From: an uncultured archaeon
Lineage (GTDB): Archaea > Asgardarchaeota > Thorarchaeia > Thorarchaeales > Thorarchaeaceae
Assembly: GCA_964590575.1 (NCBI GenBank)
Contig: CAZPWM010000075.1
Coordinates: forward strand, 1-16,040
DNA length: 16,040 bases
Reading direction: 5' to 3'
The notes beneath the pieces are model-generated. The model saw nothing but the letters and a program-made list of their open reading frames with translations, searched no databases and was not told the DNA's origin. The position numbers and the translations under genes were made by a program. Below, piece by piece: positions 1 to 15,616 of this stretch. The number at the start of each line of letters is the position of its first letter. Within the stretch, counting starts at the first letter, position 1.

Positions 1-217
1 ATCGTGCATCAATCTCTGAAAATACAACCCCGGCTTCCTTAACCAAGGCTGCTCTCTCAAGGAGAAAAGGAACTGGATTCTTTTGTGAATCCATCAACCC
101 CATACGTCCATCCCAACTAATTGCTTCATCAATATTAAACAAGCGAGCTAGCGTATTGATTTCTGCTTTTGCTACAGTGATATTCTCACCAGATAGATAG
201 ACAAAGTATTTGGTCAA
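1..217 (-). CDS. Partial CDS (5' end only; runs off the window), probable tRNA (guanine(10)-N2)-methyltransferase Trm11/TrmG10, N-terminal region
   Basis: Manual translation from TTG at 217: MTKYFVYLSGENITVAKAEINTLARLFNIDEAISWDGRMGLMDSQKNPVPFLLERAALVKEAGVVFSEIDAR, open to the window edge. The YF.xLSGE...AxAE start resembles archaeal TrmG10 N-termini. It lies 7 bp downstream of the GPN GTPase stop. Absent from the supplied ORF track. Confidence 0.55.
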   Translation of the reverse strand, partial: MTKYFVYLSGENITVAKAEINTLARLFNIDEAISWDGRMGLMDSQKNPVPFLLERAALVKEAGVVFSEIDAR

Positions 218-224
218 ACAACAA

Positions 225-1004
225 TCACTCGTATAGGTTATCGCCACCAGAAAAGATACGCTGCATTTCACCATATAATGTATCGATTCCAGTCATCTCC
301 TTTGCTGAAACTGGTATATTACCTGTCGCAGTGTCTAGGGATTCAAGCATTTGCATAATTGCTCGTGAATACTCTGTCCGCAATCCTTCTGCAGAGGAGT
401 CAAGAGCCTCTTCAAGGAGATACAACTCTGAACCCCATCCCACAATCTCTTCTACTTCCTCAGTGGTTAGAATATCTGGCTTGCTCAAAACATTCAGCTG
501 TGGAAGACTAAATCGAATACTGATTGAGATTCCTAGGAGCGTCGATGAAAGATATCCTGAAGGAGTACGAGCAATATTTGAATCGAGCAAGTACAAAGAG
601 AGAGCTGGATCATCGCCTCTGAGACTAGACACCATCAAGGGCCCTGAGTTTCGATACGCAAAAAGTTCCATTTGTCCCGGACAATCTATGAGTATATAGT
701 CTCGGTCAGTATCAATAATCTCATCTCTTATATCATTGACACTACTAACTGCCATATCCAGTGAAGCAACAAGAGCTCCATTTGGGCCCAACCCAAATGA
801 GCTCATTACTTCTCCATAATCCACATACTCTCTAATATCAACATCACTTGTGTATGGTGGGGAGTCCACACCAGGGTCGAGATTGACAACAGTCACACTC
901 AAATCCGAACCTACAAGCCACTTCTCCAGTGATGCAGTGAGTAAGGACTTTCCTGAGCCTGCTGTACCAACTATAAATGTGAAAAACATCTGTAATACCG
1001 ACAT
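225..1004 (-). CDS. GPN-loop GTPase (archaeal GPN1/PAB0955 family)
   Basis: P-loop GTAGSGKS, VVNLDPG, signature GLGPNGAL, LIDCPGQMELF (G3), NVLSKPD (G4), IPVSA (G5). The true start could be the ATG at 989 (MFFTFIVG). Confidence 0.95.
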   Translation of the reverse strand: MSVLQMFFTFIVGTAGSGKSLLTASLEKWLVGSDLSVTVVNLDPGVDSPPYTSDVDIREYVDYGEVMSSFGLGPNGALVASLDMAVSSVNDIRDEIIDTDRDYILIDCPGQMELFAYRNSGPLMVSSLRGDDPALSLYLLDSNIARTPSGYLSSTLLGISISIRFSLPQLNVLSKPDILTTEEVEEIVGWGSELYLLEEALDSSAEGLRTEYSRAIMQMLESLDTATGNIPVSAKEMTGIDTLYGEMQRIFSGGDNLYE

Positions 1005-1048
1005 TAAGTTGTTGAAACAACCTCTTTGAGTTCTTCGGTACTATCACA

Positions 1049-1120
1049 ATTTAATACAAACCTATTCTTCTTCTATTAGCAATCAAAAGATTTCAAATCA
1101 GCACCTACGCAACTCTTATA
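1049..1120. promoter_or_regulatory. Divergent promoter region with TATA-like boxes for the GPN GTPase (minus strand, TATTAAAT ~1056-1049) and the HTH gene (plus strand, CTTATA ~1115-1120)
   Basis: AT-rich archaeal TATA-like motifs in a divergent intergenic gap. The plus-strand box is ~25 nt before ATG 1145, consistent with a nearly leaderless transcript. Confidence 0.4.
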
Positions 1121-1144
1121 GCGATTCTGAAGGGCAGAGAGTTT

Positions 1145-1888
1145 ATGGACAATAGTGAGGCACTTCGAAGGCTGGCAGAAGCAATGGCTGGTGAGATATG
1201 TCTCGCAGAAAATAATCCTGGTGCTGTTATGCGACGATGGCGTGAAAGATTTCACATTTCCCAGAAAACCCTCGCCAAATATCTTAAGGTTTCACCTTCT
1301 GTTATTAGTGACTATGAGAGCGGTAGACGGAAATCACCCCGGGTTGAAACCATCAAACGTTTTGTCGAAGGGCTGATTGAAATGGATGCTTCTGATGGTG
1401 GTAGGATTGCTATGGCACTGGAGAAATTAATCACCCCAGAAATCTCCTCTGATGCAATCCTAGATAGTCGTGAGTTTGGGGTTCCAATACCTGCACGGTT
1501 GCTTGTAGAACTTCTTGATTGCAAAGTCCTCACTCATCGTAATCTACTTGACAGGGACATTTATGGATACACAGCGCTTGACAGTATCAAGGCGATTATC
1601 AATTTGACCCCCCAACAACTTCTTCGGCTTTATGGGGGGACAACCCAACGCGCTGCTATTCTCACAAATGTTTCTACAGGTCGGTCACCAATGGTGGCTA
1701 TCAAAGCTAGTCAAATTGGTACCTCCGTTGCAGTAAAACCTGCTGTGGTGATACTCCAGGGAGTAAAAGAATTAGACCCACTTGCTGTACGAATAGCTGA
1801 TAGTATACACCTACCTTTATGTTTATCAGAAATAGAAACAGCTGATGAATTAATACGCGAAATTCGGTCGTTTGACCCTCAGATGTGA
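1145..1888 (+). CDS. Xre/HTH_3 family archaeal transcriptional regulator (COG1709-like) with C-terminal DRTGG-like domain
   Basis: AGEI...PGAVMRRWRERFHISQKTLAKYLKVSPSVISDYESGRRKSP helix-turn-helix. C-terminal IYGYTALDSIKAI, GGTTQRAAILTNVSTGRSPMVAIK and LDPLAVRIA match this conserved archaeal family. Confidence 0.9.
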   Translation: MDNSEALRRLAEAMAGEICLAENNPGAVMRRWRERFHISQKTLAKYLKVSPSVISDYESGRRKSPRVETIKRFVEGLIEMDASDGGRIAMALEKLITPEISSDAILDSREFGVPIPARLLVELLDCKVLTHRNLLDRDIYGYTALDSIKAIINLTPQQLLRLYGGTTQRAAILTNVSTGRSPMVAIKASQIGTSVAVKPAVVILQGVKELDPLAVRIADSIHLPLCLSEIETADELIREIRSFDPQM

Positions 1889-1910
1889 TTCTTGCTCAAG
1901 ATGGTGAAAA

Positions 1911-3209
1911 ATGATGAAGTTTACTATGGAGATTAACGACCCTGTCCATGGTTTCATAGGTATTACCGAAACTGAGGCAAAAATAATCGATTCACTACCC
2001 TATCAGAGATTACGACGAATCAAACAACTCTCAGGTGGCCACTTTGTTTACCCAACAGCTGAACACACACGTTTTGGTCACTGTATCGGTGTTATGTATC
2101 TTGCAGGACTTAGTGGTAGGAGACTTCTGAGCCAAATGGGTCTTGGGGACCAGAAGCTCCAAGAAGTAAGAATAGCTGGTCTTCTTCATGATATTGGCCA
2201 CGGTCCCTTTAGTCATGTCTTTGAGGAAGTACTCATAGAAAAACGTGGAATGAACCATGAGGATGTAACAGAGTGGTTAATCCTCAAGAGTGAGCTGGGT
2301 GATTTACTAGAAGCTGATGGAATCTCAAAAAACCGAATTGCTGATTTAGTTCGAGGCCGCCATAAGACCAAGAAGGATGCAATCATAGCTGGAATTGTTG
2401 CAGGACAAATTGACTCTGATAAGATGGACTACTTGATTCGGGACTCATTTTATTGTGGAGTAAATTACGGACTAGTTGATATCCATCGTCTAATTGATAG
2501 TATTGAAATCTCAAAGGACTACCAGATGTATTTTGATATCGCAGCAAGAGGGGCACTAGAATCATTTCTTGTAGCTAGATACGAAATGTTTCTCAATGTC
2601 TATTATCACAAAACAGTACGCAGTGTCGAAGTCATGTTAGTCAAATTAATTGATGCTGCAGATAAAATACTGGAACTTACCAGTTTTTCATCTCCTGAAG
2701 AGTTTTTAGAATTGGATGATATGTCACTCATATCCAGAGTTCGAAGCATAAATCCCTCAGATTCGGAGGATGCTAAAGAAGCGACAAAGATGGTCAATCT
2801 TCTTGATTCACGTACTCTTTACAAATCCGCCTTCGAAAAAGTCATTCATACACAAGATCGATTTGTTTCTAAGATTCTTACCAAAAGGAAAGTTCGCGAG
2901 AGCATCCAAGAAGAAATAGCTACCATTGCAGGAGTTAGTTGTGATGAGGTGATAGTTGATGTGCCCACATTGCCATCAGTACCATACAATCCACATCAAC
3001 TCAATCCGATGGAGATAGGAATTTTTGAAATTGTCGACGGAAAGAGAGTCCCTCATAATCTCTCAGAGTATTCCAATATTGCAGAAATGATGAAAACTTA
3101 CCTTGACGTCATTCGCGTGTATACATTTGACAAAAATCGAGTAAAAGTAGGGAGAGCTGCACGCGAAGTTTTCCAAGAAGTTCCTGATACTGCGCTGATA
3201 CACATGTGA
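1911..3209 (+). CDS. HD-domain phosphohydrolase, SAMHD1/COG1078-like putative dNTP triphosphohydrolase
   Basis: INDPVHGFI, QRLRRIKQL, VYPTAEHTRFGH, LLHDIGHGPFSH, DSDKMDYLIRD, ARYEMFLNVYYHKTVR. SD-like GGTGA at ~1903; 22 bp after the HTH gene. Confidence 0.92.
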   Translation: MMKFTMEINDPVHGFIGITETEAKIIDSLPYQRLRRIKQLSGGHFVYPTAEHTRFGHCIGVMYLAGLSGRRLLSQMGLGDQKLQEVRIAGLLHDIGHGPFSHVFEEVLIEKRGMNHEDVTEWLILKSELGDLLEADGISKNRIADLVRGRHKTKKDAIIAGIVAGQIDSDKMDYLIRDSFYCGVNYGLVDIHRLIDSIEISKDYQMYFDIAARGALESFLVARYEMFLNVYYHKTVRSVEVMLVKLIDAADKILELTSFSSPEEFLELDDMSLISRVRSINPSDSEDAKEATKMVNLLDSRTLYKSAFEKVIHTQDRFVSKILTKRKVRESIQEEIATIAGVSCDEVIVDVPTLPSVPYNPHQLNPMEIGIFEIVDGKRVPHNLSEYSNIAEMMKTYLDVIRVYTFDKNRVKVGRAAREVFQEVPDTALIHM

Positions 3210-3289
3210 TTGTATTTTCCCACCATATACTCTGATTTCAACTCAAACTTGGAAAGAAAATGTATGAAACATCAAATTCTGTGTGGTGG

Positions 3290-3296
3290 TTATATA
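3290..3296 (+). promoter_or_regulatory. TATA-like box (TTATATA) upstream of the roadblock/DENN-like/MglA unit
   Basis: Archaeal TATA consensus in a 139-bp intergenic gap, ~55 bp before TTG 3349, which is preceded by GGGGCTGAGGA. Confidence 0.5.
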
Positions 3297-3348
3297 GTCG
3301 CGACATGAATTCTACATTGAACCCAACCTTCCGCCTGGGGCTGAGGAC

Positions 3349-4296
3349 TTGAGCGACGAACTGACTGAAACCTTACAGAACATTAAGGCTATTACTGGCG
3401 TTGAGAATGTCGTTTTGATTCAAAAAGATGGACTCCCTGTAGCAAGCGCAGGAGTATGGTTCAGTAAGGATGAAGTCTTTGCAGTAGCATCATCAACCTG
3501 TGCCATTTTTGGTGTAGCTAAACTCATACATGGTGATTTCAAATATTTACTGATGGAGTCTGATACCTCTAAGGTCTTTCTTGCCTCTCTACCAAATGAC
3601 CCCGATTATTTCTTGACAGTGACAACTGCACCTCGGGTCAATCTAGCAGCATTATTCATTGAGATGAAAGACAATCTATCCAGACTATCATTCCTTCTTA
3701 GACAACATGTAGACGGAAGACTTCCCCCACTTCGATCCTATAGTCTTGATGAAACTCAGAAAGTGCTCCAAGGATTTGCTGTAGCTGAAGGTCGAGATAC
3801 AAGTTACGGCGTGACACGTTCCATGATTTCACTCGACCGTTCACAAGCACTTAGCCTCAGAGCGCTTCTACGCCAAGTTCATGACTGTATCCCAAATATT
3901 GGATCTGTATTTCTGTCGCTAAGTGGTGGAGTTCGAGTTTCATTGGAAGGATTCACCAATGATAGGCTAGCCGCAATGTCTTTTGCACTTCATGATGCAT
4001 CCGAACGAGTTGTACGAACATTAAGGAATAGTTCACTACAGACGGTTCTATGTGAAACCGAAGACACACGCCATTTCATTTATGCAGTTCCAAATGGTGT
4101 TTTCAGTTTGTGGGTGGACAGGGACAGTCAGAAACTTGGTCTTATGAGGCTTTTATTGAAACATTATATTGAGGAAATAAGGCGGGTCTTAGCAGCTGCA
4201 GCAGCGGTAAAACCTGCAGTTCCAGATGATTTGAAAGAATTACTATTGTCAGGTGGTTCTGATAGCGGCCTGATGTTAACGAGGAGAGAACCATGA
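3349..4296 (+). CDS. Tandem double Roadblock/LC7 (MglB/LAMTOR2-like) domain protein
   Basis: Domain 1 (aa ~1-117): LQNIKAITGVENVVLIQKDGLPVAS ... YFLTVTTAPRVNLAALFIEMK. Domain 2 (aa ~166-281): LLRQVHDCIPNIGSVFLSLSGG ... DRLAAMSFAL ... KLGLMRLLLK. TTG start. Confidence 0.85.
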   Translation: MSDELTETLQNIKAITGVENVVLIQKDGLPVASAGVWFSKDEVFAVASSTCAIFGVAKLIHGDFKYLLMESDTSKVFLASLPNDPDYFLTVTTAPRVNLAALFIEMKDNLSRLSFLLRQHVDGRLPPLRSYSLDETQKVLQGFAVAEGRDTSYGVTRSMISLDRSQALSLRALLRQVHDCIPNIGSVFLSLSGGVRVSLEGFTNDRLAAMSFALHDASERVVRTLRNSSLQTVLCETEDTRHFIYAVPNGVFSLWVDRDSQKLGLMRLLLKHYIEEIRRVLAAAAAVKPAVPDDLKELLLSGGSDSGLMLTRREP

Positions 4297-5213
4297 CATA
4301 TTCAATTATGAACCTAATCGAGTTGATGGGTGACCAATTCCCGCTTCTACTAAACTCAATATTAGAACGGATGCCAGTAATTGTCGCAGGTGAGGACATT
4401 GAACTAGTGGATGATATCACAGAGAGTCTAACCACTTTATGCCCACATCGACATAAACTAGTATTTTGGCGCGATTTCACGTCTGAAGCTGAAATTTTCT
4501 CAGTCTGGGAGGAAGAAAAACACAATTATGAAGTGAGTAGAACTATTGTTTGTGGGCTTTCCGGGAACCTTCGACTCGCTATGGATAGAATTTCTCGTTT
4601 TGCAGGTTGGATATTAGCTATCCCATTAGGCTTCACTGTTTTGGGAGTACAAGTAACTGAGAGCACTCTTCAAGATATGACTTCTCACATTCTCAAAAAC
4701 TCAAACAACTGTGGAATATTGAGGGTGAGTTCACCTTCGTCCATAACATTCTCACTTGTTAGACCGTCGAACAGTAGTCTTGAGGTTGAGAAGAAGATTG
4801 TAAATAAAATATTGATGCGAAAGAAACAATCTCTAGAGAGAATTAGACGACTTCTCACAAAATCACTACGTGGTCTCGATGTATCAAATCACATTCTGAC
4901 CGCAGTCCTCAAACTAGATGATGAGTCTGAGAAACTCACACAAGATGTTTTCGAGGAAGAGATAAACAACTATGTTCATGCAGCTCGTAGAGCAGTCACT
5001 CTATTGTCAAGAATCCGGTTGGCAAGGGAACTTGGTGCATCCACGACATTAACGGAACGAAATCTCTACGAGGCCATTGGATGGGATGGAGGAGAATTAC
5101 CAGATTTGATCCAGTTCATTAGAGCTGAGTGGCACGAAGATTTCTCTGATTGCGTTAAAAGTGGAGCATTGTCAGGACTTGGGGCTTGGGTAGACAGCAT
5201 GTGGGGTACATAA
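4293..5213 (+). CDS. Hypothetical protein with folliculin/DENN-core-like N-terminal alpha/beta region and helical C-terminus
   Basis: 306-aa ORF overlapping the upstream gene by ATGA. The N-terminal LMGDQFPLLLNSILERMPVIVAGEDIELVDDITESLTTLCP follows the helix-strand-helix-P pattern of cDENN/FLCN C-terminal domains. The coding call is solid; the fold call is by eye only. Confidence 0.6.
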   Translation: MTYSIMNLIELMGDQFPLLLNSILERMPVIVAGEDIELVDDITESLTTLCPHRHKLVFWRDFTSEAEIFSVWEEEKHNYEVSRTIVCGLSGNLRLAMDRISRFAGWILAIPLGFTVLGVQVTESTLQDMTSHILKNSNNCGILRVSSPSSITFSLVRPSNSSLEVEKKIVNKILMRKKQSLERIRRLLTKSLRGLDVSNHILTAVLKLDDESEKLTQDVFEEEINNYVHAARRAVTLLSRIRLARELGASTTLTERNLYEAIGWDGGELPDLIQFIRAEWHEDFSDCVKSGALSGLGAWVDSMWGT

Positions 5214-5227
5214 TAGGGGGTCAAAAA

Positions 5228-5809
5228 ATGATAATCGATTATGGTAATCGTACCGTGGGACTCAAAATCGTTTTCTTTGGACCTGCAATGAGTGGAAAAA
5301 CCACTTCGATTCGCTGGCTGTTTTCAACACTTGATTACGCTGAGAAGCTCACCTCAATAGAGAATACAGTGGGACGAACAATGTTTTGTGATTTTGGTAC
5401 AATTCCTTTTTCACTGAGCAGCAGCTGGACAATAAATGCGCATGTTTGGTCAGCTACCGGCCAAGATTTCTACAGATCAACACGTGAGGTAGTATTAGTC
5501 GGGGCTGATGGAGTGATTTTCATCGCAGACTCTCAAGAACATCTTCTTGACGAGAATCTGGCAAGCTGGAACGAGCTAATGTCAATGATTGAAGAGGAAG
5601 AGCGACCACTTCCATTAATTGTTTGTCTTAACAAACAAGACCTACCAAATGCGGTTCAAGAAGAACAGATTAGAACGCATCTGAAAATACCGATATCTGT
5701 GCCTGTCTTCAGGAGTGTGGCAAGAGAGGGTCACAATATCATGGAAGCTTTTCAATATCTTTTCCAAAACGCTATGCGTGCAAGTATACTTACTCAACCC
5801 GTTTCATGA
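5228..5809 (+). CDS. MglA-like small GTPase (Ras superfamily, Arf/Rag/MglA branch)
   Basis: MIIDYGNRTVGLKIVFFGPAMSGKTT (G1), RTMFCDF (G2, cf. MglA RTLFFDF), WSATGQ (G3 without Asp, cf. MglA YTVPGQ), GADGVIFIADSQ, NKQD (G4), SVA (G5). The start is placed at ATG 5228 after AGGGGGT rather than at 5186. Confidence 0.92.
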   Translation: MIIDYGNRTVGLKIVFFGPAMSGKTTSIRWLFSTLDYAEKLTSIENTVGRTMFCDFGTIPFSLSSSWTINAHVWSATGQDFYRSTREVVLVGADGVIFIADSQEHLLDENLASWNELMSMIEEEERPLPLIVCLNKQDLPNAVQEEQIRTHLKIPISVPVFRSVAREGHNIMEAFQYLFQNAMRASILTQPVS

Positions 5810-5847
5810 GCGCGAAACCTGCACATTGACAGATATCAAGCAAACCA

Positions 5848-5853
5848 TTTATA
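5848..5853 (+). promoter_or_regulatory. TATA-like box (TTTATA) upstream of pyrG
   Basis: Archaeal TATA-like motif in the gap between the GTPase and pyrG, preceded by an A-rich CAAGCAAACC stretch. Confidence 0.4.
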
Positions 5854-5927
5854 CGAACTGATACGACTTCAACCTCAGTTCCAGGTTGGGACAGTATACA
5901 TCTTCTCAAAATCAATTCTTGAGGTTC

Positions 5928-7613
5928 ATGCTATTGCTTTCAGAACAAGAAAAACCCAGTTTTGTCTTCATTACAGGGGGCGTGCTGTCTGGTATCGGAA
6001 AAGGAGTCACTACTGCTTCTATTGCGAAACTATTCCAATTCCGAGGGTATAACATTCGAATAATCAAGATTGACCCCTATCTAAACATTGATCCTGGTAC
6101 TCTGAATCCAATCGAACATGGAGAAGTCTTCGTAACAGACCAGACTTGGACATTCCAACCTGTCGCTGATTTTGAATTCAAAATCTCAGAGATTGACTTA
6201 GACTTTGGAACCTATGAACGATTTACTGGGTTGGAGGTTCACCCATCACAGAATATCACATCCGGGCAAATTTACATTTCAGTTATCCTTGAGGAGCGCA
6301 AAGGAGGATTTCTTGGACGGACTGTTCAAATCATCCCTCATATCACAGACAGAATCAAACAAAGGATTTGGGAGGTAGTGGAGAAGAAACCAATACCAGA
6401 TATTCTCCTAGTAGAAATAGGTGGTACCGTCGGTGATATTGAGGCGATGCCATTTCTAGAAGCTGTAAGACAGCTTGTTCGCGAACTAGGTCGAACCCGT
6501 ACTGCTGTTGTTCATGTCACTCTAGTGCCTTACATGAACTCAGTAGGTGAGTTCAAGACCAAACCGACACAGCATAGTGTTAGAACACTTCAAAGCTTAG
6601 GTCTCCAACCCGACATTATGATTTGCAGAGCAGATGAAAAACTTCCAGATACCGCTAAGGAGAAAATTGCTTTATTCTGCAATATTCCAGAAGAAAGAGT
6701 TGTTTCGAATCCTGATATTCCGGTGATATACCAGCTTCCTCTCTCATTTGAAGAGGAAGGACTTGGAAACATACTTGTTGAACACTTTGGACTAGAATCA
6801 AGAAAACCTGACACCGAAGTTTGGTCAAACATGGTACGATCCTTTGAAGATGTATCTGAAACAGTAGTAATTGCAATGCCCGGTAAATACACAACACTTG
6901 GCGACTCCTACAAAAGTATCAATCAAGCTTTAACACATGCTGCTGCTGCATGTGGGGCTAAAGTCGAGATACATTGGATTGAAACAGAAGAACGAAGCAC
7001 TGAAGAATGCCTTACAGAGGATTTGGCAGATGTGGATGGGGTTCTTCTAACACCGGGTTTCGGAGAACGTGGTGTTGAAGGAATGATTTGCGCTGCTTCA
7101 GTGACCCTAAAATCCATGATACCTCTTCTAGGCATTTGTTATGGCGCTCAACTCTCTACCGTTGCATTTGCTAGGAATGTTATGAGTTGGAAAGGCGCGA
7201 ATACCACGGAAGTAGATGTGGACAGCCTTTATCCTGTTGTAGACCTAATGGATGAACAAAAGCTAACAGACGATAAAGGTGGCACAATGCGTCTTGGTGG
7301 CCATGATGTACATATTGTAAAAGGAACACGATTACACGAAATCTATGGTACTGATATTGTCCATGAACGGTTTCGTCATAGATATCATCTAATTGACCGT
7401 TACTTGAAGAAGATGAATGAAATGGGTTTGAAGGTTTCAGCCCTTGACTCAACTGGTCGAATAATCAATGCAATTGAGCTCATCAATCATCCCTTTTGGA
7501 TTGGAGTACAATACCATCCCGAGTTCAAGTCCCGCCCAGACAACCCGCATCCACTTTACTTGGGTCTAATAAGAGCTGCACTAGAATACAAAAGGTTGAG
7601 AGTGAAAAAGTAG
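5928..7613 (+). CDS. pyrG: CTP synthase (glutamine-hydrolysing)
   Basis: FVFITGGVLSGIGKG, KIDPYLNIDPGTLNPIEHGEVFV, EIGGTVGDIE, KTKPTQHSV, PGFGERG, GICYGAQ (catalytic Cys), GGTMRLG, RHRY, QYHPEF (His-Glu). The start is probably ATG 5928 or TTG 5934 after GAGGT. Confidence 0.98.
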   Translation: MLLLSEQEKPSFVFITGGVLSGIGKGVTTASIAKLFQFRGYNIRIIKIDPYLNIDPGTLNPIEHGEVFVTDQTWTFQPVADFEFKISEIDLDFGTYERFTGLEVHPSQNITSGQIYISVILEERKGGFLGRTVQIIPHITDRIKQRIWEVVEKKPIPDILLVEIGGTVGDIEAMPFLEAVRQLVRELGRTRTAVVHVTLVPYMNSVGEFKTKPTQHSVRTLQSLGLQPDIMICRADEKLPDTAKEKIALFCNIPEERVVSNPDIPVIYQLPLSFEEEGLGNILVEHFGLESRKPDTEVWSNMVRSFEDVSETVVIAMPGKYTTLGDSYKSINQALTHAAAACGAKVEIHWIETEERSTEECLTEDLADVDGVLLTPGFGERGVEGMICAASVTLKSMIPLLGICYGAQLSTVAFARNVMSWKGANTTEVDVDSLYPVVDLMDEQKLTDDKGGTMRLGGHDVHIVKGTRLHEIYGTDIVHERFRHRYHLIDRYLKKMNEMGLKVSALDSTGRIINAIELINHPFWIGVQYHPEFKSRPDNPHPLYLGLIRAALEYKRLRVKK

Positions 7614-8776
7614 TGGAAAGAAACCTCGACAAGCTACTATCAAAATTGGTTGAAGAAATAGAACACATTGAGGTCACAAGAGAGCGATTTGGCGAGGTTC
7701 TCAGAAATGTTAGAAACAAAATTGATTTGGGCAAGTTTCCCGCTGTGGCTTCAAACATAATCGATAGACAGTTCTACACAAAAATTGAACCTACAAGTCT
7801 ATCAGGTCTTCGAATTGCTGGTATAGATGGTGGTCTAGTCAGAAAGCGATTCAAATCTATGGATTTAGTCTTGACAAGAGGGGTCGCAGTCATATTCCAA
7901 TTTGGGCCAGAAGATAGTCCAGTCGTTGACTTTTATCCTGACGCGTTTCCTGAACCAAAGATTAGTCCACTAATGCTAACATTATCCAGCATAGAGCTTG
8001 ACCAGCTCGCATCACTTGAACGAATTGCAGCTGAACTTAGAGTGACTCTGTCAGTTCTTGAAGAATTCCACACTGACTTAATCCTTCTTGACGGATCACT
8101 ATTCTACCATCCTCGAGACCGTCCCCAAACTGGTTCTATAGTGTATGAGAAGTTCCAAGAAGTATTATCCCTTTACAAACAACTCTATCATAAAGCTCGG
8201 AAGAAGGGTACTACTTTGGTAGGCATAGTCAAAGACAGCAGGTCAACACGAATTGCTACAATACTGGGTGAAATACTTCCACATATTGTCCGTGAACCGG
8301 CAGTCTTTGAGATGATGCAAGGTGTTGATTATAGGTGGTTACTCAAAATTTCTCGAGATTGTGACCTCCTCGATACATTCCTTGAAGAAGGGGAACGGTC
8401 CTTTGCATTTCGATATTCATCAGAACTTGCTTTCAATACAAACTCAATAAGCGATGATATCTCTGTTTGGGCATCCTCAATTTGGGTAACATATCTAAAA
8501 ACAGCAAGAGATGACCTACCGATAAGAATAGAATTTCTTTCGACTGAGGATGGTGACACTACTACGACAAAATTAGACAAGGCACTATCTGCAATACTCC
8601 CACTCTCTTCACAACATCCTGAATATGGTATTCCCACACCGATTCTTGAGGCTGATGCTCGTGCAAAGATAACTGCGAATGAAACACGGTTAATTATCGA
8701 TAGGCTCATGGCACTATCAGGACTTACCTATATGACACTTGAAAAAAGACGTTCACGAAACCCGTTTGGAGGTTGA
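7613..8776 (+). CDS. nurA: DNA double-strand break repair nuclease NurA
   Basis: IAGIDGG, LILLDGSL, VGIVKDSRS, IRIEF, YGIPTPILEADARAKI; directly upstream of herA. The start is placed at GTG 7613, overlapping the pyrG stop (TAGTG). Confidence 0.9.
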   Translation: MERNLDKLLSKLVEEIEHIEVTRERFGEVLRNVRNKIDLGKFPAVASNIIDRQFYTKIEPTSLSGLRIAGIDGGLVRKRFKSMDLVLTRGVAVIFQFGPEDSPVVDFYPDAFPEPKISPLMLTLSSIELDQLASLERIAAELRVTLSVLEEFHTDLILLDGSLFYHPRDRPQTGSIVYEKFQEVLSLYKQLYHKARKKGTTLVGIVKDSRSTRIATILGEILPHIVREPAVFEMMQGVDYRWLLKISRDCDLLDTFLEEGERSFAFRYSSELAFNTNSISDDISVWASSIWVTYLKTARDDLPIRIEFLSTEDGDTTTTKLDKALSAILPLSSQHPEYGIPTPILEADARAKITANETRLIIDRLMALSGLTYMTLEKRRSRNPFGG

Positions 8777-8779
8777 TTA

Positions 8780-10294
8780 ATGACTGAATTTCCAACAATC
8801 ACACGACTTGGCACTGTTGTTTCCACTGACTCTGGTCCTAACGTTATGGAATTCTCGTTCGTGCTCGAGGGTGGTCCTCGAGAGATAATTGCACGACGTG
8901 GTGAATTCATATCAATCGTGACTGATGCTGGAACTGTGATTGCCAGAGTTCAGGATCTCGTACGTACAAACCGTTACTATCAACATGCAGAAGCAGTTCG
9001 TGAATATCAATCAAGAGGCGAACCTCTACGGTCTATATTTCCTACTGATAGATGGCAATACACTGTTGCCAAGGCTCGAGTGTTAGGTATATGGAGTAAT
9101 GGTCGAACAATTCGACCATATTTCGCGGTTTCTCCGGGAGCTGTTGTTAGAATAGTCGATGAAGATGTTCTCGCTCGCTTCCTGAAGTTAGATTTAGAAA
9201 AAGGTCTTCATCTTGGTCAATTAGCATACCAGAACCTTCAGTTTACTCCATCGCTTGACAGCTTATTGTCTAAGCATCTAGCTATACTAGCAATGAGTGG
9301 AGCAGGGAAATCATACTTTGTATCTGTTCTTTTGGAGGAGCTACTCTCCCGACCAAAAGATAGAGGTCGACTCTCTGTGGTTGTTATTGATGTACACGGC
9401 GAGTATACATATCTGAAAGATGTAACCACAGAAGCGCTTGGAATATCAAAAGGACAATTCGAAGTAGAACATATACGTGGATCGCACTTTCAGATTCCCG
9501 TTCAGATGCTCTCTGCAGAAGCGATAGGTGCTCTTGTTTCCGATATGAGCTCAATTCAAGTCCGCGATTTACGACGAGTAGTATCTGAGATGAAGAATAT
9601 ACTGAAAGAAGGATACACGTTATCGGATATCGTAGAATATGTACAAAATGACGAAAAAATTAGCAAGAATACACGCGAAGCACTTTCTGGTTGGTTGATT
9701 AACCTTGATGAAACAGGTCTTTTTGGCAAGGAAGCCGCTCCAAATCTTAAGACTATTGTAAGACCGGGAAAAATTGCACTGGTCGATCTTAGTGATTTCA
9801 TCAGTCTCAAGAAGAAACAGATTATAGTGTCGTACTTGGCTAACGAACTTCTTTATCTGCGGAGACGTGAAGTAATCCCGCCATTCTTACTGGTTCTCGA
9901 AGAAGCACATCAGTTTTGTCCAGAGAGCCGGCATGAGCTTGCTTTGCCAAAGAGTCGTATCGAAACAATTGCACGAGAAGGTAGAAAATTCCATGCTCTT
10001 CTTTGTTTGATATCCCAAAGACCTGTGAAACTCTCCACAACGGTTCTGAGTCAATGTAGCAACCAAGCGATATTTAGATGTACAAACCCGTATGATTTAG
10101 ATCATATTGGTAAATCAAGTGAAGGGATCGACCGGGCATCCTTGGATGCAATCACCACCCTCGAGATTGGAGAATCACTATTTGTTGGTGAAACAGTATC
10201 AGTTCCCACATTTGTGAAAATTCGCCAACGGAAATTTGAGCCAACTGGTTCAATCAAGAACTTGTCTGAGGCTGTAAAGAAGTCCGATAAATGA
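8780..10294 (+). CDS. herA: HerA/FtsK-family bipolar DNA helicase/ATPase with N-terminal HAS barrel
   Basis: N-terminal LGTVVS...RRGEFISI barrel. KHLAILAMSGAGKS (Walker A), VVVIDVHGEY, LLVLEEAHQF (Walker B), IAREGRKF, ISQRP. 3 bp after nurA. Confidence 0.93.
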   Translation: MTEFPTITRLGTVVSTDSGPNVMEFSFVLEGGPREIIARRGEFISIVTDAGTVIARVQDLVRTNRYYQHAEAVREYQSRGEPLRSIFPTDRWQYTVAKARVLGIWSNGRTIRPYFAVSPGAVVRIVDEDVLARFLKLDLEKGLHLGQLAYQNLQFTPSLDSLLSKHLAILAMSGAGKSYFVSVLLEELLSRPKDRGRLSVVVIDVHGEYTYLKDVTTEALGISKGQFEVEHIRGSHFQIPVQMLSAEAIGALVSDMSSIQVRDLRRVVSEMKNILKEGYTLSDIVEYVQNDEKISKNTREALSGWLINLDETGLFGKEAAPNLKTIVRPGKIALVDLSDFISLKKKQIIVSYLANELLYLRRREVIPPFLLVLEEAHQFCPESRHELALPKSRIETIAREGRKFHALLCLISQRPVKLSTTVLSQCSNQAIFRCTNPYDLDHIGKSSEGIDRASLDAITTLEIGESLFVGETVSVPTFVKIRQRKFEPTGSIKNLSEAVKKSDK

Positions 10295-10377
10295 TGTCCC
10301 TCCCAGTAATCCTGATAAGACGAAAGAATGGTGTTCCACTCGGGAAAGATAAAAAATGAATCGGGGGTTCTAATCAA

Positions 10378-10944
10378 TTGTCCGATGAAGAACTAAACGA
10401 GATAAAACAACTAATTGATTCAATGCAGTCAAACCTCGTAGAGCTTTTTGATCAACTCCGTGAATTACGTAGTCGTCTGAACATTGTTTCAAATATGACA
10501 TCAGAAACAACTCCATCTATTCTTCCACTGTTCTCTGAAGTCAAGGCACCAAACTCAGATGCACCTGGCACGACATCAAAATCCCTTGTTGAAGATGAAG
10601 AACTTAGCACCACCATTATAGAAAACGAGACGCCTAGTGATATGATGATACCCGAAGATCAGGAGGGCGGAAACAGTGCAAAAGTGAATCGGGTTCTTGA
10701 TCCAATCGCCCATGAACTGCGTACTGGAGAGGCTCCTGCAGAGATAATTTATGAATATTTACAAGCTGCAAGAGAATACCTAATTGATGATGATGACGGT
10801 GAGTCTAAAAAAGGGAAAGTTGCCAGAGATATGGATATTGTCCTTAATTTTTTGAAGGCTCGGGGTAAAAGAACAATTCGTCCAGATGAACGTGATAATA
10901 TCCTGAAAAGAATACGTCGTTGGAAAGCTCATTTAACAGTATAA
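10378..10944 (+). CDS. Hypothetical protein (N-terminal coiled coil, acidic S/T/E/P-rich linker, helical C-terminal domain)
   Basis: 188-aa ORF filling the gap, with a TTG start after GGGGGT and a protein-like composition. No family recognised. Confidence 0.75.
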   Translation: MSDEELNEIKQLIDSMQSNLVELFDQLRELRSRLNIVSNMTSETTPSILPLFSEVKAPNSDAPGTTSKSLVEDEELSTTIIENETPSDMMIPEDQEGGNSAKVNRVLDPIAHELRTGEAPAEIIYEYLQAAREYLIDDDDGESKKGKVARDMDIVLNFLKARGKRTIRPDERDNILKRIRRWKAHLTV

Positions 10945-10995
10945 TCTTGCTCTCCAACTGACTAACTTCTAAATAGTCATTATTGACCAAAAGAA

Positions 10996-11277
10996 TTATT
11001 CTAAGTCAATGATGATACGCTTTATCTTGGTCCATGAAATCTTCTTGAGACCGTGCTGGCCAGGTTCGTACCTACAATCCAGTAAATCTGCTTCTTTCAG
11101 AATCTTAATCTGGGCGCTAGCATTAGCCTCAGTTCCACCGAGGTGTCTAGCTACTCGTGTCACGTCTTTCTCTCCTTGAAGCAAAATCTTCAGTATTTTT
11201 AGTCGAGTTCCTGATGATAGAGCGCGTCCAATTCGTAGTATTGCGTCGTCGTTATTGATTTCAAGTGTTTCGGACAG
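10996..11277 (-). CDS. ArsR-type winged-helix transcriptional regulator (~93 aa)
   Basis: GRALSSGTRLKILKILL, DVTRVARHLGGTEANASAQIKILKEADLL, wing YEPGQHGLKKI. The supplied 153-aa ORF overlaps the divergent gene and crosses the promoter; the likely start is CTG 11277 after GAGGTG. Confidence 0.85.
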   Translation of the reverse strand: MSETLEINNDDAILRIGRALSSGTRLKILKILLQGEKDVTRVARHLGGTEANASAQIKILKEADLLDCRYEPGQHGLKKISWTKIKRIIIDLE

Positions 11278-11321
11278 TTTGTTACACCTCGAATGAGTGT
11301 TGCGTGGTTGCTCAAGCAGGG

Positions 11322-11331
11322 CTTTATTATA
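11322..11331. promoter_or_regulatory. TATA-like element between the divergent ArsR and DUF460 genes
   Basis: Reads TATAATAAAG on the minus strand, ~45 bp before the proposed ArsR start, and CTTTATTATA on the plus strand. Confidence 0.45.
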
Positions 11332-11431
11332 GTTGTTGTTTGAGGATGGTCTAGACAGCAATAGTGCAAGATTGAACCAACAAATAGGTTCATAGGTTTT
11401 CTCTGATTCACTTGGATGAGCGCTGAGCCTT

Positions 11432-13453
11432 ATGGATAATGATGGCGTATTCATCATAGGTTTTGATATACTTCCTTCTCATAGTGCAAGTTCTAAGAGT
11501 GCCCCTAAATTTGCTTGCGTCATTACTAGAAACGAGATAGTTCTGAATGAATACCCTGAAATATCTAGAGGCGCACTACTGAAACTTGTTCGTGAGGTTT
11601 CTCCCAAGTGGCTCTGTACCGACAATATCTTTGAAATAGTCCCAGATACAAAATCACTCTTTCATCTCGTGGATAGAATTCCACCAGAAACCAGAATTGT
11701 TCAAGTCACTGGAGTGCCACCTCACCAAACACCTCTCAAGATACTGGCAAAACGTCACGGTTTAATTGCTCGAGGCAAACCTAACCCTCTTGAATCAGCC
11801 CATATAGCTGCAAAGTTGGTTTCTAGAGGTATTGGTTATTCACTAGAGTGCTTTGGAGAGCAGACGGAAATCAAGGTGACTCGAGGTCGCAAACCTGGAC
11901 GCGGTGGACAGAGTGCAAATAGATATCGTCGCAGAGTTCACTCACAAATCCAACAGATGACCCGTTTCATAGAATCCACGTTAAAAGCTGCAGAAATCGA
12001 GTATGATCTTGACATTCGTGCATCTGATTTTGGCTATGCTAGCGCAAGGCTTGTTACATATGCACCTTTACCAGCCGTTCGTAGTCTTGTTGAAACAAAA
12101 CGTGGGGGCGACTTCAACATAATTATCTCCCCAGTTCGAAAAAGAGTTGAGTTTCTTTCTCTCGAACCTCGTCCTGTAGTATCGGATTTGAAACCGAAGT
12201 ATTTCATTTTGGGTATCGATCCTGGGACCACGGCCGCATATTGTCTTCTATCATTGAATGGAAAAATCCGTGAACTGAGAAGTAAAAAGGGACTTACAAG
12301 AGCAGATATCATTAGAGAAGTATATGAAAAGGGAATTCCCGTAATCGTGGCTTCAGATGTGCCTCAGGTTCCTCACTTTGTCGAGAAAATTGCAAGTACA
12401 GTGAATGCTCCTATTTTCACTCCCAATAAACCAATTGCGGTTTCAAGTAAACAAGAACTAGCTCGTGACTATAGTAGCGAGATGAAAATTCGTAACGCTC
12501 ATGAACGAGATGCATTGACAGCTGCGGTCTATACGTACAAGAGTCTCCTTCCGAAATTTCAACAGATTGACAGAATGATCCTTGATGAGCAGATATCAGT
12601 TGACCGTAATTACCTAAAGGCTTTGGTGATTAAGGGGTCTTCAATCAACGAAGCTTTAGCCAAGATAGAGAGTGAGGAATCAGAACCAATAGAGAGTATT
12701 CCAGAACAACCAGCGACTGAAGAAGAATCTTTGACTCAAGAACGATATGACTCACTAAAAGCGAAAACCGCGCAATTGGAATCGGAAAACAGACTGCTAG
12801 GTGAAAAGATTGAGGACTTGCAGCGATTTGTAGAATATCTGAAATTTAGAGAGAGTGAGCTTTCAGACAGTCTCGAGATTGTCAGTCGTGAGAACCACTG
12901 GAAAATCAAACGAGATCGTGAAGTGGAAAAAACCAAATTCACGTTGAAAAAAACGCAACGTGAAGCAGATTCACTTAAAGAACAAGTAGACACTCTAAGT
13001 AGACGGCTTGAACGCTTAACGGGAGTAAAACGTCTAGAAATGCGTGGAGACATGCTTGCAGTCAAAGTAATTCCCCACTTCACACGTGAGAGTATCGAGG
13101 ATTTCATCAAGAAAGTAGGCCTAAAAAGTGGTGATGTTGTTCTCTTTGAGGATGCATCAGGAGGAGGTCCACAGACTGCTGGAATATTGATAGATCGAGA
13201 GATACGGGCCGTCGTTGTAGATACGCCGCTTTCCCATCTCCCGCAAGATGAACTGATTAAGGCACTCATACCAGTCGTAGATGCTAAACAAGTTGAACTT
13301 CAAAGAGTTGACGAATTTGCATTCATAAGTCGAGGGAAGTTCGACCAACAACTCCAATCATTCATTCGGACTGTACGTGAACAAGCTAGACAAAAGGGAG
13401 AAGAACAACTTGTAGAGTTAGTGGAACGATACCGTCGCGAGATTGAGCGATAG
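11432..13453 (+). CDS. DUF460/COG2433 family protein (predicted RNase H-fold nuclease domain plus long coiled coil)
   Basis: N-terminal IIGFDI...LCTDNIFEI...IVQVTG; central ILGIDPGTTAAYCLLSLNG, PVIVASDV, NAHERDALTAA; heptad-rich coiled coil at aa ~435-535; C-terminal GDVVLFEDASGGG. Confidence 0.88.
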   Translation: MDNDGVFIIGFDILPSHSASSKSAPKFACVITRNEIVLNEYPEISRGALLKLVREVSPKWLCTDNIFEIVPDTKSLFHLVDRIPPETRIVQVTGVPPHQTPLKILAKRHGLIARGKPNPLESAHIAAKLVSRGIGYSLECFGEQTEIKVTRGRKPGRGGQSANRYRRRVHSQIQQMTRFIESTLKAAEIEYDLDIRASDFGYASARLVTYAPLPAVRSLVETKRGGDFNIIISPVRKRVEFLSLEPRPVVSDLKPKYFILGIDPGTTAAYCLLSLNGKIRELRSKKGLTRADIIREVYEKGIPVIVASDVPQVPHFVEKIASTVNAPIFTPNKPIAVSSKQELARDYSSEMKIRNAHERDALTAAVYTYKSLLPKFQQIDRMILDEQISVDRNYLKALVIKGSSINEALAKIESEESEPIESIPEQPATEEESLTQERYDSLKAKTAQLESENRLLGEKIEDLQRFVEYLKFRESELSDSLEIVSRENHWKIKRDREVEKTKFTLKKTQREADSLKEQVDTLSRRLERLTGVKRLEMRGDMLAVKVIPHFTRESIEDFIKKVGLKSGDVVLFEDASGGGPQTAGILIDREIRAVVVDTPLSHLPQDELIKALIPVVDAKQVELQRVDEFAFISRGKFDQQLQSFIRTVREQARQKGEEQLVELVERYRREIER

Positions 13454-13498
13454 ATTTCCCTTAGATGATGACTCGACTCCAAGATTGCTGGAATCTGA

Positions 13499-13726
13499 CT
13501 ATTCAGGAATCTGAATCCACAGAATATTGTTACCTCTTATCAGAATTTGGCCATACTTGGCTCTGATTTCTTCATTTTCAAGTTCTTCAGCGTCTGCAAG
13601 TGTGAGGTTCATATATATGTCACATCTAGTTAAGCGCCCTCGAAAGATTCTCTGGTCTTTCAATTTTATCGAAACAATATCATTGAGTTGGTCTTCTAGG
13701 GCTTTTATTGGCATTTTCTCAGGCAC
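13499..13726 (-). CDS. Sm-like archaeal protein (SmAP/Lsm)
   Basis: Sm1 motif VSIKLKDQRIFRGRLTRCDIYMNLTLADAEE and Sm2 motif YGQILIRGNNILWI. The start is either GTG 13726 (6 nt after GAGGTG) or GTG 13735 (leaderless). Confidence 0.93.
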   Translation of the reverse strand: MPEKMPIKALEDQLNDIVSIKLKDQRIFRGRLTRCDIYMNLTLADAEELENEEIRAKYGQILIRGNNILWIQIPE

Positions 13727-13760
13727 TCGGGGCACCTCTCAAAAGAGGCCTTCTAAGTAT

Positions 13761-13768
13761 ATTATAAA
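13761..13768 (-). promoter_or_regulatory. TATA box (TTTATAAT) for the Sm-like gene
   Basis: Strong archaeal TATA match ~26-35 bp upstream of the candidate start codons. Confidence 0.55.
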
Positions 13769-13873
13769 GCCTTTGCTAGATAACGTTGTATCTCTATATG
13801 GTCCAAACGTAAGAGTCAACTGGTGATGAAACACACGATTTATCCAGAACATAACATTTCAGGTAAGTGAAAG

Positions 13874-14860
13874 ATGACACTATACTGTCTTGGAATTGAA
13901 GGAACCGCTCACTCATTTGGTGCTGGAGTTGTGACCAGTGAAGGTAAGGTTCTTTCAAATGAATGGGATATGCTTAAACCGGCTCAAGGTGGGATTCATC
14001 CACGTGAAGCTAGTCGTCATCATTCAGAGCTTGGTCCAGGAATAATCAAAGAAGCTGTTAAGAAGGCAGGTCTTGATTTTCATGAAATTAATCTCATTGC
14101 TTTCTCTCAGGGTCCTGGATTGGGTCCATGCCTAAGAACCACTGCAACAATTGCCAGAACTCTTTCTCTCAAACTAGAAACTCCTCTTGTTGGTGTCAAT
14201 CATTGTGTTGCTCATATCGAGATTGGTTGTCTAGAATCCAATTTCAATGATCCCGTGACCGTGTACGTATCTGGTGGGAACACACAAATCATTGCTTTTG
14301 CGGGTGGTCGATTCAGGACTTTTGGTGAAACCCTAGACATTGCGATTGGAAACATGTTAGATGTACTTGGTCGCGAGCTGGGGATGGGCTTTCCTAGTGG
14401 ACCAATTGTTGAAGAAGAAGCAAAGAACGGTAGACAGTATCATAGTTTACCTTACTCGGTAAAGGGAATGGACCTGAGCTACTCTGGTATGCTTACAGCT
14501 GCAAAAAAACTTCATTCAGAAGGTGTTCCCATTCCTGACATTTGTTTTAGTGTACAAGAAACCTCATTTGGAATGCTAGCAGAAATTGCAGAACGAGCAA
14601 TAGCACATACTAAGAAGAATGAGCTACTTCTGACAGGTGGTGTCGCTCGAAATAATCGCCTCACCGAAATATTATCAGGTGTTGCAGAAAGACACGACGC
14701 ACGGTTTCATCGAGTTTCTCCGTCCTTGGCTGGAGATCAAGGTGCGATGATAGCTTGGAATGGTATTCTCCAATATAATACAGGTCATGAAACTAAAGTC
14801 GAGAACTCTCATGTACTACCGAAATGGCGTACTGACGACCAAGATATATTGTGGAGGTAG
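13874..14860 (+). CDS. kae1: tRNA N6-adenosine threonylcarbamoyltransferase Kae1 (KEOPS)
   Basis: LGIEGTAHSFG, GGIHPREASRHH, AFSQGPGLGPCL, VNHCVAHIEIG (metal-binding His pair), YVSGGNTQ, GETLDIAIGN, LPYSVKGMDLS, TGGVARN, GDQGAMIA. Confidence 0.97.
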   Translation: MTLYCLGIEGTAHSFGAGVVTSEGKVLSNEWDMLKPAQGGIHPREASRHHSELGPGIIKEAVKKAGLDFHEINLIAFSQGPGLGPCLRTTATIARTLSLKLETPLVGVNHCVAHIEIGCLESNFNDPVTVYVSGGNTQIIAFAGGRFRTFGETLDIAIGNMLDVLGRELGMGFPSGPIVEEEAKNGRQYHSLPYSVKGMDLSYSGMLTAAKKLHSEGVPIPDICFSVQETSFGMLAEIAERAIAHTKKNELLLTGGVARNNRLTEILSGVAERHDARFHRVSPSLAGDQGAMIAWNGILQYNTGHETKVENSHVLPKWRTDDQDILWR

Positions 14861-14865
14861 CTAGT

Positions 14866-15492: not shown

Positions 15493-15543
15493 CTTCCAGT
15501 CAAATCAATTTGATAGATGAAATCGCCTCGCCACAAGGTAATC

Positions 15544-15549
15544 TTTATA
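15544..15549 (+). promoter_or_regulatory. TATA-like box (TTTATA) upstream of rps15
   Basis: TATA consensus ~70 bp before ATG 15617; SD GAGGT at 15605-15609. Confidence 0.5.
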
Positions 15550-15616
15550 TCCACAGCCTTAGGCCGTGGGGCAGACCCGGTTTCTGAGGGTATCAATGGA
15601 CTTAGAGGTAATTCCA

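Follow-up and report, generated by a model that had tools for sequence, protein, structure and literature searches.

A free-standing DENN-like protein encoded between a tandem roadblock protein and an MglA-like GTPase in Asgard archaea

Analysis of a 16,040-nucleotide (nt) stretch of DNA from an uncultured archaeon of the Thorarchaeaceae (assembly GCA_964590575.1, contig CAZPWM010000075.1, positions 1 to 16,040; referred to below as the window) revealed three consecutive genes on one strand that encode a tandem Roadblock/LC7 protein (P0002), a protein with a predicted DENN-like fold (P0001), and an MglA-like small GTPase (P0003) (Table 1). It is likely that P0001 is a stand-alone DENN protein of a three-gene Asgard module. 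This assessment is based on the predicted fold of P0001, the lack of a longin domain in its chain, the order of the three genes, the co-distribution of the DENN-like and roadblock genes among genomes, and the families of the two neighbors, from which we infer a joint function. A preliminary description of the window had already suggested a folliculin-like DENN protein that lacks its own longin domain, with the adjoining double-roadblock gene perhaps supplying that module in trans.

The P0001 model, built from an alignment of 37 family sequences, had a pLDDT (predicted local distance difference test score) of 89.3 and a pTM (predicted template modeling score) of 0.85. Its N-terminal part (residues 1 to ~160) is of the alpha/beta type with five to six strands, and residues 164 to 304 form a helical part. 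Strands were predicted at residues 84 to 88, 106 to 111, and 141 to 147, and helices at residues 164 to 192, 209 to 246, 255 to 262, and 269 to 280. The segments singled out in the preliminary description, namely SIMNLIELMGDQFPLLLNSILERMPVIVAGEDIELVDDITESLTTLCP (residues 4 to 51), TIVCG (84 to 88), GWILAI (105 to 110), and CGILRV (140 to 145), are all present in P0001, each of the last three coincides with a predicted strand as had been proposed, and the long helical C-terminus noted there is reproduced in the model.

Structural comparisons pointed to the DENN clan. The five top Foldseek matches were folliculin chains, with expect (E) values of 1.4e-3 to 6.5e-3. An aligner independent of Foldseek placed DENND10 (Z 13.5), the folliculin C-terminal domain (Z 13.2 and 13.1), C9orf72 (Z 11.2), and SMCR8 (Z 11.1) highest, with GspE and a RuvB-like helicase (Z 9.7) and DENND1A (Z 9.6) below these five. 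When the Foldseek list was rescored, the nine best chains all belonged to the DENN clan (Z 13.5 to 10.0, 177 to 209 residues aligned), and the alignments extended to model residues 281 to 289, covering both the alpha/beta and the helical halves. For example, 186 amino acids (aa) of the model aligned with residues 157 to 357 of the DENND10 chain 8p0v_M (Z 13.5) at a root-mean-square deviation (rmsd) of 4.3, and model residues 1 to 282 aligned with residues 345 to 558 of the folliculin chain 3v42_B (Z 13.2, 187 aa, rmsd 3.5). Scores for C9orf72 (Z 11.2 to 11.5), SMCR8 (Z 10.0 to 11.1), and DENND1B (Z 10.1) were lower. On the predicted structure, residues 1 to ~160 correspond to the central cDENN alpha/beta domain and the C-terminal helices to dDENN, and we accept a cDENN+dDENN-like fold for the modeled P0001, the layout that had been suggested from the sequence.

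The uDENN/longin part of the tripartite DENN layout is missing from the chain, whose first element is the helix that precedes strand 1. As the preliminary description had held, a longin domain is excluded from this chain, because only nine codons are open upstream of the P0001 ATG (an open frame of 315 aa versus 306) and the roadblock gene ends inside this ATG. At this junction (ccATGAca) the ATG at 4293 to 4295 overlaps the TGA at 4294 to 4296, an arrangement which suggests that the roadblock gene and P0001 are translationally coupled. The P0001 frame is free of stops. The mechanically called open reading frame (ORF) of the GTPase (5186 to 5809) starts with a TTG at 5186 and overlaps the 3' end of P0001. 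The most likely start is the ATG at 5228, 14 nt past the P0001 stop, because a GGGGG run precedes this ATG and orthologues begin at the same position.

The P0001 gene is real and conserved. A search of proteins of 168 to 536 aa gave 228 relatives at an E value of 1e-3 or less, the best 120 of which were 78 to 97% identical to P0001. Searching 1.84 billion representative sequences exhaustively gave 66 clusters (45 at an E value of 1e-10 or less), mostly of stand-alone proteins of ~290 to 310 aa or shorter fragments. Three of the 66 were longer: P0139 (400 aa), P0191 (370 aa, with an N-terminal extension), and P0184 (1725 aa, six matched stretches). The last of these was rejected as a fused form, being an immunoglobulin-repeat protein matched by chance. 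Among the matches listed, the source names were only Thorarchaeota, Odinarchaeota, and Promethearchaeota. R26 and P28 are invariant in the family, and R53, E75, R83, W106, E166, E211, and E279 are conserved in at least 90% of its members.

Sequence-level support for the DENN kinship of P0001 is weak but consistent. Folliculin_C, the best Pfam profile match in the family, was found in two of the 37 members (P0136, E 4.8e-4, 20.2 bits versus a cut-off of 27; P0137, E 0.015, 15.3 bits), and DENN in one (P0142, E 0.093, 13.1 bits versus a cut-off of 23.4). All of these matches sit on the N-terminal segment of residues 5 to 62, and residues 5 to 62 of P0136 align to Folliculin_C profile positions 4 to 62. 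The profile match and the structural alignment agree with the folliculin register proposed in the preliminary description. It had named a best match to a non-DENN fold, together with a lack of DENN-clan profile matches, as the outcome that would count against it; the best-matching folds were those of DENN-clan chains, and the family profile matches were Folliculin_C and DENN. The nearest named clusters in a language-model Atlas were C9orf72-like (0.95 and 0.92), Folliculin_C/SMCR8_C (0.92), SPA (0.91), and DENND11 (0.89), with Avl9 also among them. Matches of P0001 to Pfam Sec2p (E 0.25) and NCBIfam sce7726 (E 0.045) were dropped as far under the cut-off, and ferritin-type PDB matches of the family profile on the helical part (E 0.006 to 0.07) were judged to be chance.

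The gene upstream of P0001 encodes a double roadblock, as had been recognized from its sequence. P0002 matched Pfam Robl_LC7 in two stretches (E 1e-10, 41.7 bits versus a cut-off of 23), and its model (pLDDT 76.2) contains two alpha-beta-beta-alpha-beta-beta-beta-alpha units (residues 1 to 121 and 164 to 282). In this model, the two units of P0002 form a roadblock pseudo-dimer within one chain. Unit 1 aligned with the Asgard Roadblock3 chain 9jue_D (Z 12.3, rmsd 1.4, 114 aa), MglB (6hjm_A, Z 12.1), a Thorarchaeota roadblock (7f8m_A, Z 11.3), and MP1-p14 (2zl1_B, Z 10.5). Unit 2 (profile positions 167 to 286) matched, at E 1.5e-9, a bona fide roadblock protein from the same genome that has a single domain and itself matched Pfam Robl_LC7 at 6.6e-16.

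The GTPase downstream of P0001 is MglA-like, as judged from its sequence matches and motifs. In a phmmer search of the PDB, P0003 matched MglA 3t12_A at 1.7e-29 (MglA chains ranged to 2.4e-28), Arf1 at 2.9e-9, and Rab7 at 1.8e-8, which puts MglA ahead of Arf and Rab by some twenty orders of magnitude; the Pfam matches were Arf (5.4e-13) and Ras (1.3e-8). A serine or threonine in place of the aspartate of DxxGQ and an arginine in switch I are marks of MglA. The motifs GPAMSGKT, G49-R50-T51, A76-T77-G78-Q79, and N135-K136-x-D138 are invariant among P0003 orthologues, and the invariant SATGQ places a serine at the aspartate position of DxxGQ. An R53 finger of MglA is mentioned in an excerpt of PMC10933270.

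The same genome (a 3.40-Mb assembly, 91% complete) also encodes a pair consisting of a classical MglA-like GTPase and a single-domain roadblock, without a DENN gene. The GTPase of this pair is one of 14 small-GTPase matches in the genome. Genomes of one Asgard family, f12, carry a second, diverged paralogue of the tandem roadblock (E ~1e-85) at a separate locus. One such locus, L055, lacks an adjoining DENN-like gene and is followed 2 kb downstream by a distant small GTPase.

The distribution of the module was evaluated in a sample of 201 Asgard genomes, in which related genomes are not independent and the counts are not proof of absence. Of these genomes, 110 matched the DENN-like profile, usually once per genome, and 113 matched the tandem-roadblock profile; among the 85 genomes of high quality, the DENN-like profile was matched in 63. 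Both are present in the same nine families (f1, f2, f3, f6, f8, f9, f12, f15, and f24). The DENN-like and tandem-roadblock counts were 42/43 and 43/43 in f1, 36/40 each in f9, and 15/19 and 19/19 in f12, and both proteins were found in all sampled genomes of f3 (4/4), f15 (4/4), and f24 (3/3). Neither was found in 17 of the 18 other families (0/21 in f5, for example); the exception was f22, in which two of 10 genomes had only weak DENN-like matches (E ~1e-4).

The roadblock, DENN-like, and GTPase genes followed one another in this order on one strand, adjacent or overlapping, at all 24 loci compared by coordinates, which come from all nine families and across which protein identity drops to 26 to 35%. 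The other 20 matches per query were assigned by count to 20 close-kin loci (L002 to L022). The preliminary suggestion that the tandem roadblock supplies a longin-like module in trans would fit this fixed order and the matching family-level distribution. At many f9 loci a contig end lies 0.2 to 2 kb from the trio, in every case on the side of the roadblock gene (G132:C32, G192:C9, G071:C49, G008:C15, G049:C28, G065:C83, and G156:C2, for example); a repeat or mobile element may be responsible for this shared assembly break.

The preliminary description had called for a search for relatives fused to longin or roadblock domains. No fused relatives of 546 to 2000 aa were found with the family alignment, which is weak evidence. 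Weak profile matches led to a family of ~360-aa proteins from Hodarchaeales or Heimdallarchaeota that shares the core motif behind an N-terminal extension of ~185 residues. In an hhalign comparison, columns 16 to 68 of the P0001 family aligned with columns 185 to 238 of the ~360-aa family (probability 89.8%, E 1.8e-6). PF27109 (named SMCR8_C in the Atlas) was found in two of its 31 listed members, and a C9orf72-like match on residues 53 to 164 in three of its 19 aligned members (best E 0.0021). These features fit, without proving, an identity as longin+DENN proteins. Longin+DENN proteins in the Hodarchaeales/Heimdall lineage are described in excerpts of bioRxiv 10.1101/2020.10.19.343400 and PMC12290439. 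In the Hodarchaeales-type family, as sampled, the trio was not detected; longer proteins with the cDENN core motif are present there instead. Four distant relatives of 294 to 397 aa from other Asgard families (L048 to L051) also have an N-terminal extension, which is followed by the core motif (LL.E.PV..G ... LVPHR), and weak Pfam matches to DENN (0.026), C9orf72-like (0.0099), and Fuz_longin_1 (0.059) suggest that they are probably longin+DENN proteins.

A trio of this composition was already reported, on computational grounds, in 2020/2021: Liu et al. (bioRxiv 10.1101/2020.10.19.343400) described an operon for a member of the Roadblock superfamily, a small GTPase, and a DENN protein as 'conserved in most Asgard archaea'. 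They proposed that this operon functions as a folliculin-like guanine nucleotide exchange factor (GEF). We likewise found the three genes adjacent across Asgard lineages, and as far as text descriptions can be compared it is very likely that the two operons are the same: the three components, the Asgard lineage, and the folliculin-like GEF proposal agree. DENN domains are also listed among the known Asgard homologues of eukaryotic proteins in an excerpt of 10.1101/2024.02.28.582541. Full-text literature searches found no experimental or biochemical work on the P0001 family. What is added here to the earlier reports is the MglA-like nature of the GTPase, the tandem pseudo-dimer roadblock, the phyletic pattern across 201 genomes, the unlinked arrangement in one genome (below), and the finding that the sampled Hodarchaeales-type family has longer cDENN-core proteins where the trio was not found.

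Comparison with characterized systems reveals both likenesses and differences. The folliculin DENN domain (3V42, and FLCN-FNIP2 in 6NZD, 6ULG, and 8DHB) is the best-covered match to P0001 (Z 12.1 to 13.2, 187 to 189 residues, rmsd 3.5 to 3.7). Folliculin carries in the same chain an N-terminal longin domain that bears the arginine of its GTPase-activating protein (GAP) function. Its partner is FNIP and its targets are Rag GTPases, whereas P0001 is longin-free, 13 to 14% identical, and encoded beside an MglA-like GTPase. DENND10 of Commander (8P0V, Z 13.5) and DENND1A/B with Rab35 (6EKK and 3TW8, Z 9.6 to 10.1) match both the cDENN and the dDENN parts of P0001, and DENND1 provides the precedent for a GEF; unlike P0001, these proteins have uDENN, cDENN, and dDENN in one chain, and identity is 10 to 12%. 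C9orf72-SMCR8 (6LT0, 7O2W, and 7MGE) aligned at Z 10.0 to 11.5 over 188 to 209 residues. Each of these two proteins combines longin with DENN, and their heterodimer is a GAP of Arf/Rab GTPases, whereas P0001 is DENN only. The GTPase and roadblock unit 1 of the trio resemble the bacterial MglA-MglB switch (3T12, 3T1Q, and 6HJM), in which MglB and MglA reportedly associate 2:1 (3T1Q). In contrast to the bacterial switch, the roadblock of the trio is duplicated in one chain and a DENN-like gene lies in between. Bacterial MglA/MglB is not known to have a DENN partner.

In the mechanism that we propose, the three proteins would form one GTPase switch. The tandem roadblock, within one chain, would correspond to an MglB dimer or to a longin/roadblock heterodimer and would serve as a GTPase-binding platform, probably stimulating hydrolysis via R50 in switch I and Q79 of the GTPase itself. 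The DENN-like protein would be a second regulator of the same GTPase. The gene neighborhood suggests that P0001 may bind a small GTPase, with either GEF activity or a role in a GAP complex. Prediction of a complex of the tandem roadblock and GTPase with the DENN-like protein as partner gave a score of 0.00 against a mark of 0.32, in a run without controls, a result that speaks neither for nor against binding.

Several findings weigh against the reading of P0001 as the DENN protein of a three-gene module. On its own P0001 had no Pfam, NCBIfam, or PDB sequence match at the cut-off, and every DENN-clan profile match of its family was under the curated Pfam cut-offs, so that no DENN-clan gathering score was reached. 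No Foldseek match to the model reached an E value of 1e-3, the query-normalized template modeling (TM) scores were 0.38 to 0.41, and ~187 of the 306 residues superposed on the best matches, at an rmsd of 3.5 to 4.3 Å and 10 to 14% identity. P-loop/RecA-type ATPases scored Z 9.2 to 9.8 on residues 1 to 160, only 3 to 4 units lower. The genome G183 (f9) has the tandem roadblock directly followed by the GTPase (L054, G183:C50, 2805 to 4503). Its diverged DENN-like gene (323 aa, E 3.7e-21; L038, G183:C66, 3546 to 4517) has no roadblock or GTPase neighbors and is on another contig, which demonstrates that the DENN-like gene can be unlinked. Liu et al. called the GTPase 'Rab-like' and the roadblock 'LAMTOR1-like', whereas in the window MglA is the closest match of the GTPase and two roadblock units are joined in tandem. 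Finally, the DENN fold is called common throughout the tree of life in an excerpt of PMC13392464, and therefore a shared fold alone proves neither homology nor function.

The ATPase scores raise the question of whether P0001 is a degenerate P-loop/RecA-like ATPase of the VirB11/GspE/FlaI type with a helical tail and a merely convergent likeness to DENN. GspE (2oap, Z 9.7 to 9.8, 182 to 183 aa), a RuvB-like protein (5f4h, Z 9.7), FlaI (Z 9.2 to 9.3), and VirB11 (Z 9.2 to 9.7) are matches that speak for this possibility, as are the clamp-loader and AAA+ chains in the Foldseek list. However, the ATPase matches mostly stop at residues 156 to 166 and score below all nine DENN-clan chains. The Walker A motif GxxxxGK[ST] is present in none of the 37 family members, in which strand 1 is followed by the loop G-[EKN]-[DNE]-x-x-x-V-D, without a conserved lysine. 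In addition, the only recurrent fold-relevant profile matches are Folliculin_C and DENN, and the Atlas neighbors are DENN-clan, leaving convergence a highly improbable explanation. It would also be conceivable that the trio genes are neighbors without a common function and that the DENN-like protein acts on other GTPases or none, as the roadblock and GTPase genes that adjoin without a DENN-like gene in G183 and the 14 matches to a small-GTPase profile in the window's own genome might suggest. This is very unlikely because the same order was retained at 24 of 24 loci in nine families despite the low protein identity, the DENN-like and roadblock genes share their family-level presence, and start and stop overlap in the window.

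How P0001 would act within a shared switch is a more evenly balanced matter. By analogy with DENND1B on Rab35, our preferred reading, which we hold tentatively, is that P0001 is a nucleotide exchange factor acting on the switch regions of the GTPase. There is also a serious possibility that P0001 is DENN-folded and not a GEF, either docking on the tandem roadblock as a structural subunit or co-GAP, or binding the GTPase in its GTP form as an effector. FLCN-FNIP2 (6nzd, 6ulg, and 8dhb) and C9orf72-SMCR8 (7mge) are among the best-matching solved complexes, and in both the catalytic arginine is said to lie in the longin domain, with the DENN halves reportedly sitting behind the longin dimer as a scaffold. 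A separate GEF would not be required, because roadblock dimers of the MglB type can act as a GAP and, reportedly, as a GEF (excerpts of PMC10933270 and PMC11016934). The proposed MglA GEF RomRX has been reinterpreted as an effector (excerpt of PMC13408092). Set against this, the genuine Rab GEFs DENND1A/B also match the P0001 model (Z 9.6 to 10.1), and the conserved charged residues R26, R53, E75, and R83 suggest an interaction or catalytic surface, although such a surface does not discriminate between the possibilities.

The other genes of the window, together with loci on other contigs that are mentioned above, are listed in Table 1. No Mre11 or Rad50 gene is visible within the window beside the NurA/HerA pair. 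The TTG start of NurA was probably called too early, because the listed ORF overlaps the end of the CTP synthase gene by ~118 nt. The Kae1/TsaD-like and Bud32-like genes overlap by 10 nt and make up the KEOPS pair that is usual in archaea. Three metatranscriptome libraries from sediment have contigs that map to 3459 to 4174 in the roadblock gene at a depth of ~2, some with 0 to 1 differences; this cover could include DNA carry-over. None from the three sediment runs was found on 4293 to 5213, and a part without cover proves nothing. A scan for sigma-70 promoters and terminators gave results at the level of shuffled controls, and the sigma-70 model is not relevant to archaea.

Table 1. Positions of the gene trio, of other features of the window, and of related loci on other contigs
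Feature	Position	Strand	Basis or remark
GPN-loop GTPase	225-1004	-	Pfam ATP_bind_1 6.2e-56; strand opposite to trio
Helix-turn-helix protein	1145-1888	+	
HD-domain protein	1911-3209	+	
TTATATA, possible archaeal TATA box	3290..3296	+	53 nt upstream of roadblock start; sequence reading only
Tandem Roadblock/LC7 protein P0002, 315 aa	3349..4296	+	Pfam Robl_LC7 and predicted model
ATGA overlap, roadblock stop/P0001 start	4293..4296	+	Read from sequence
Stand-alone DENN-like protein P0001, 306 aa	4293..5213	+	Predicted model and structural matches
cDENN-like alpha/beta part of P0001	~residues 1-160 (4293-4772)	+	Predicted model
dDENN-like helical part of P0001	~residues 164-304 (4782-5204)	+	Predicted model
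MglA-like small GTPase P0003, 193 aa	5228..5809	+	phmmer versus PDB, Pfam, motifs
CTP synthase	5886-7613	+	
NurA nuclease	7496-8776	+	Pfam 2.7e-21
HerA helicase	8780-10294	+	Pfam 1.1e-29
188-aa ORF	10378-10944	+	No Pfam match
673-aa protein	11432-13453	+	DUF460 2.3e-35
Kae1/TsaD-like gene	13874-14860	+	Pfam TsaD 4.4e-75
Bud32-like RIO-type kinase gene	14851-15492	+	RIO1 2e-10
MglA-like GTPase and single-roadblock pair, same genome	G000:C136 (L052) 705-1277, 1294-1665		Adjoining IS605 OrfB/TnpB-type gene 1720-2931(-)
Tandem-roadblock paralogue loci in f12, examples	G011:C2:22723-23595 (L055 2712-3692), G052:C70:36631-37506, G073:C24, G060:C23, G033:C8		
Distant DENN-like relative	L048 3370-4563	-	Relatives L048-L051, 294-397 aa
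Distant DENN-like relative	L050 3241-4338	-	
Distant DENN-like relative	L049 3347-4231	+	
Distant DENN-like relative	L051 3165-4100	+	

In the membrane traffic and nutrient signaling of eukaryotes, Rab, Rag, and Arf GTPases are under the control of DENN proteins such as folliculin and C9orf72. One speculative interpretation, which we consider rather unlikely, is that the trio shows the eukaryotic longin/roadblock-DENN regulators in a split form that predates fusion and works on an MglA-type GTPase and not on a Rab, Rag, or Arf GTPase. DENN would then have begun as an independent protein partnering an MglA/MglB-like switch, for which a roadblock pseudo-dimer in one chain was the platform, and the longin domain would have been fused to it later, as in the ~360-aa Hodarchaeales/Heimdall proteins and in eukaryotes. 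If so, the trio would resemble the ancestor of FLCN-FNIP and C9orf72-SMCR8, in a state open to direct testing. The split roadblock, DENN, and GTPase genes of Asgard archaea provide a small, expressible system that could reveal the role of DENN without a longin domain and the origin of these regulators before the eukaryotes.

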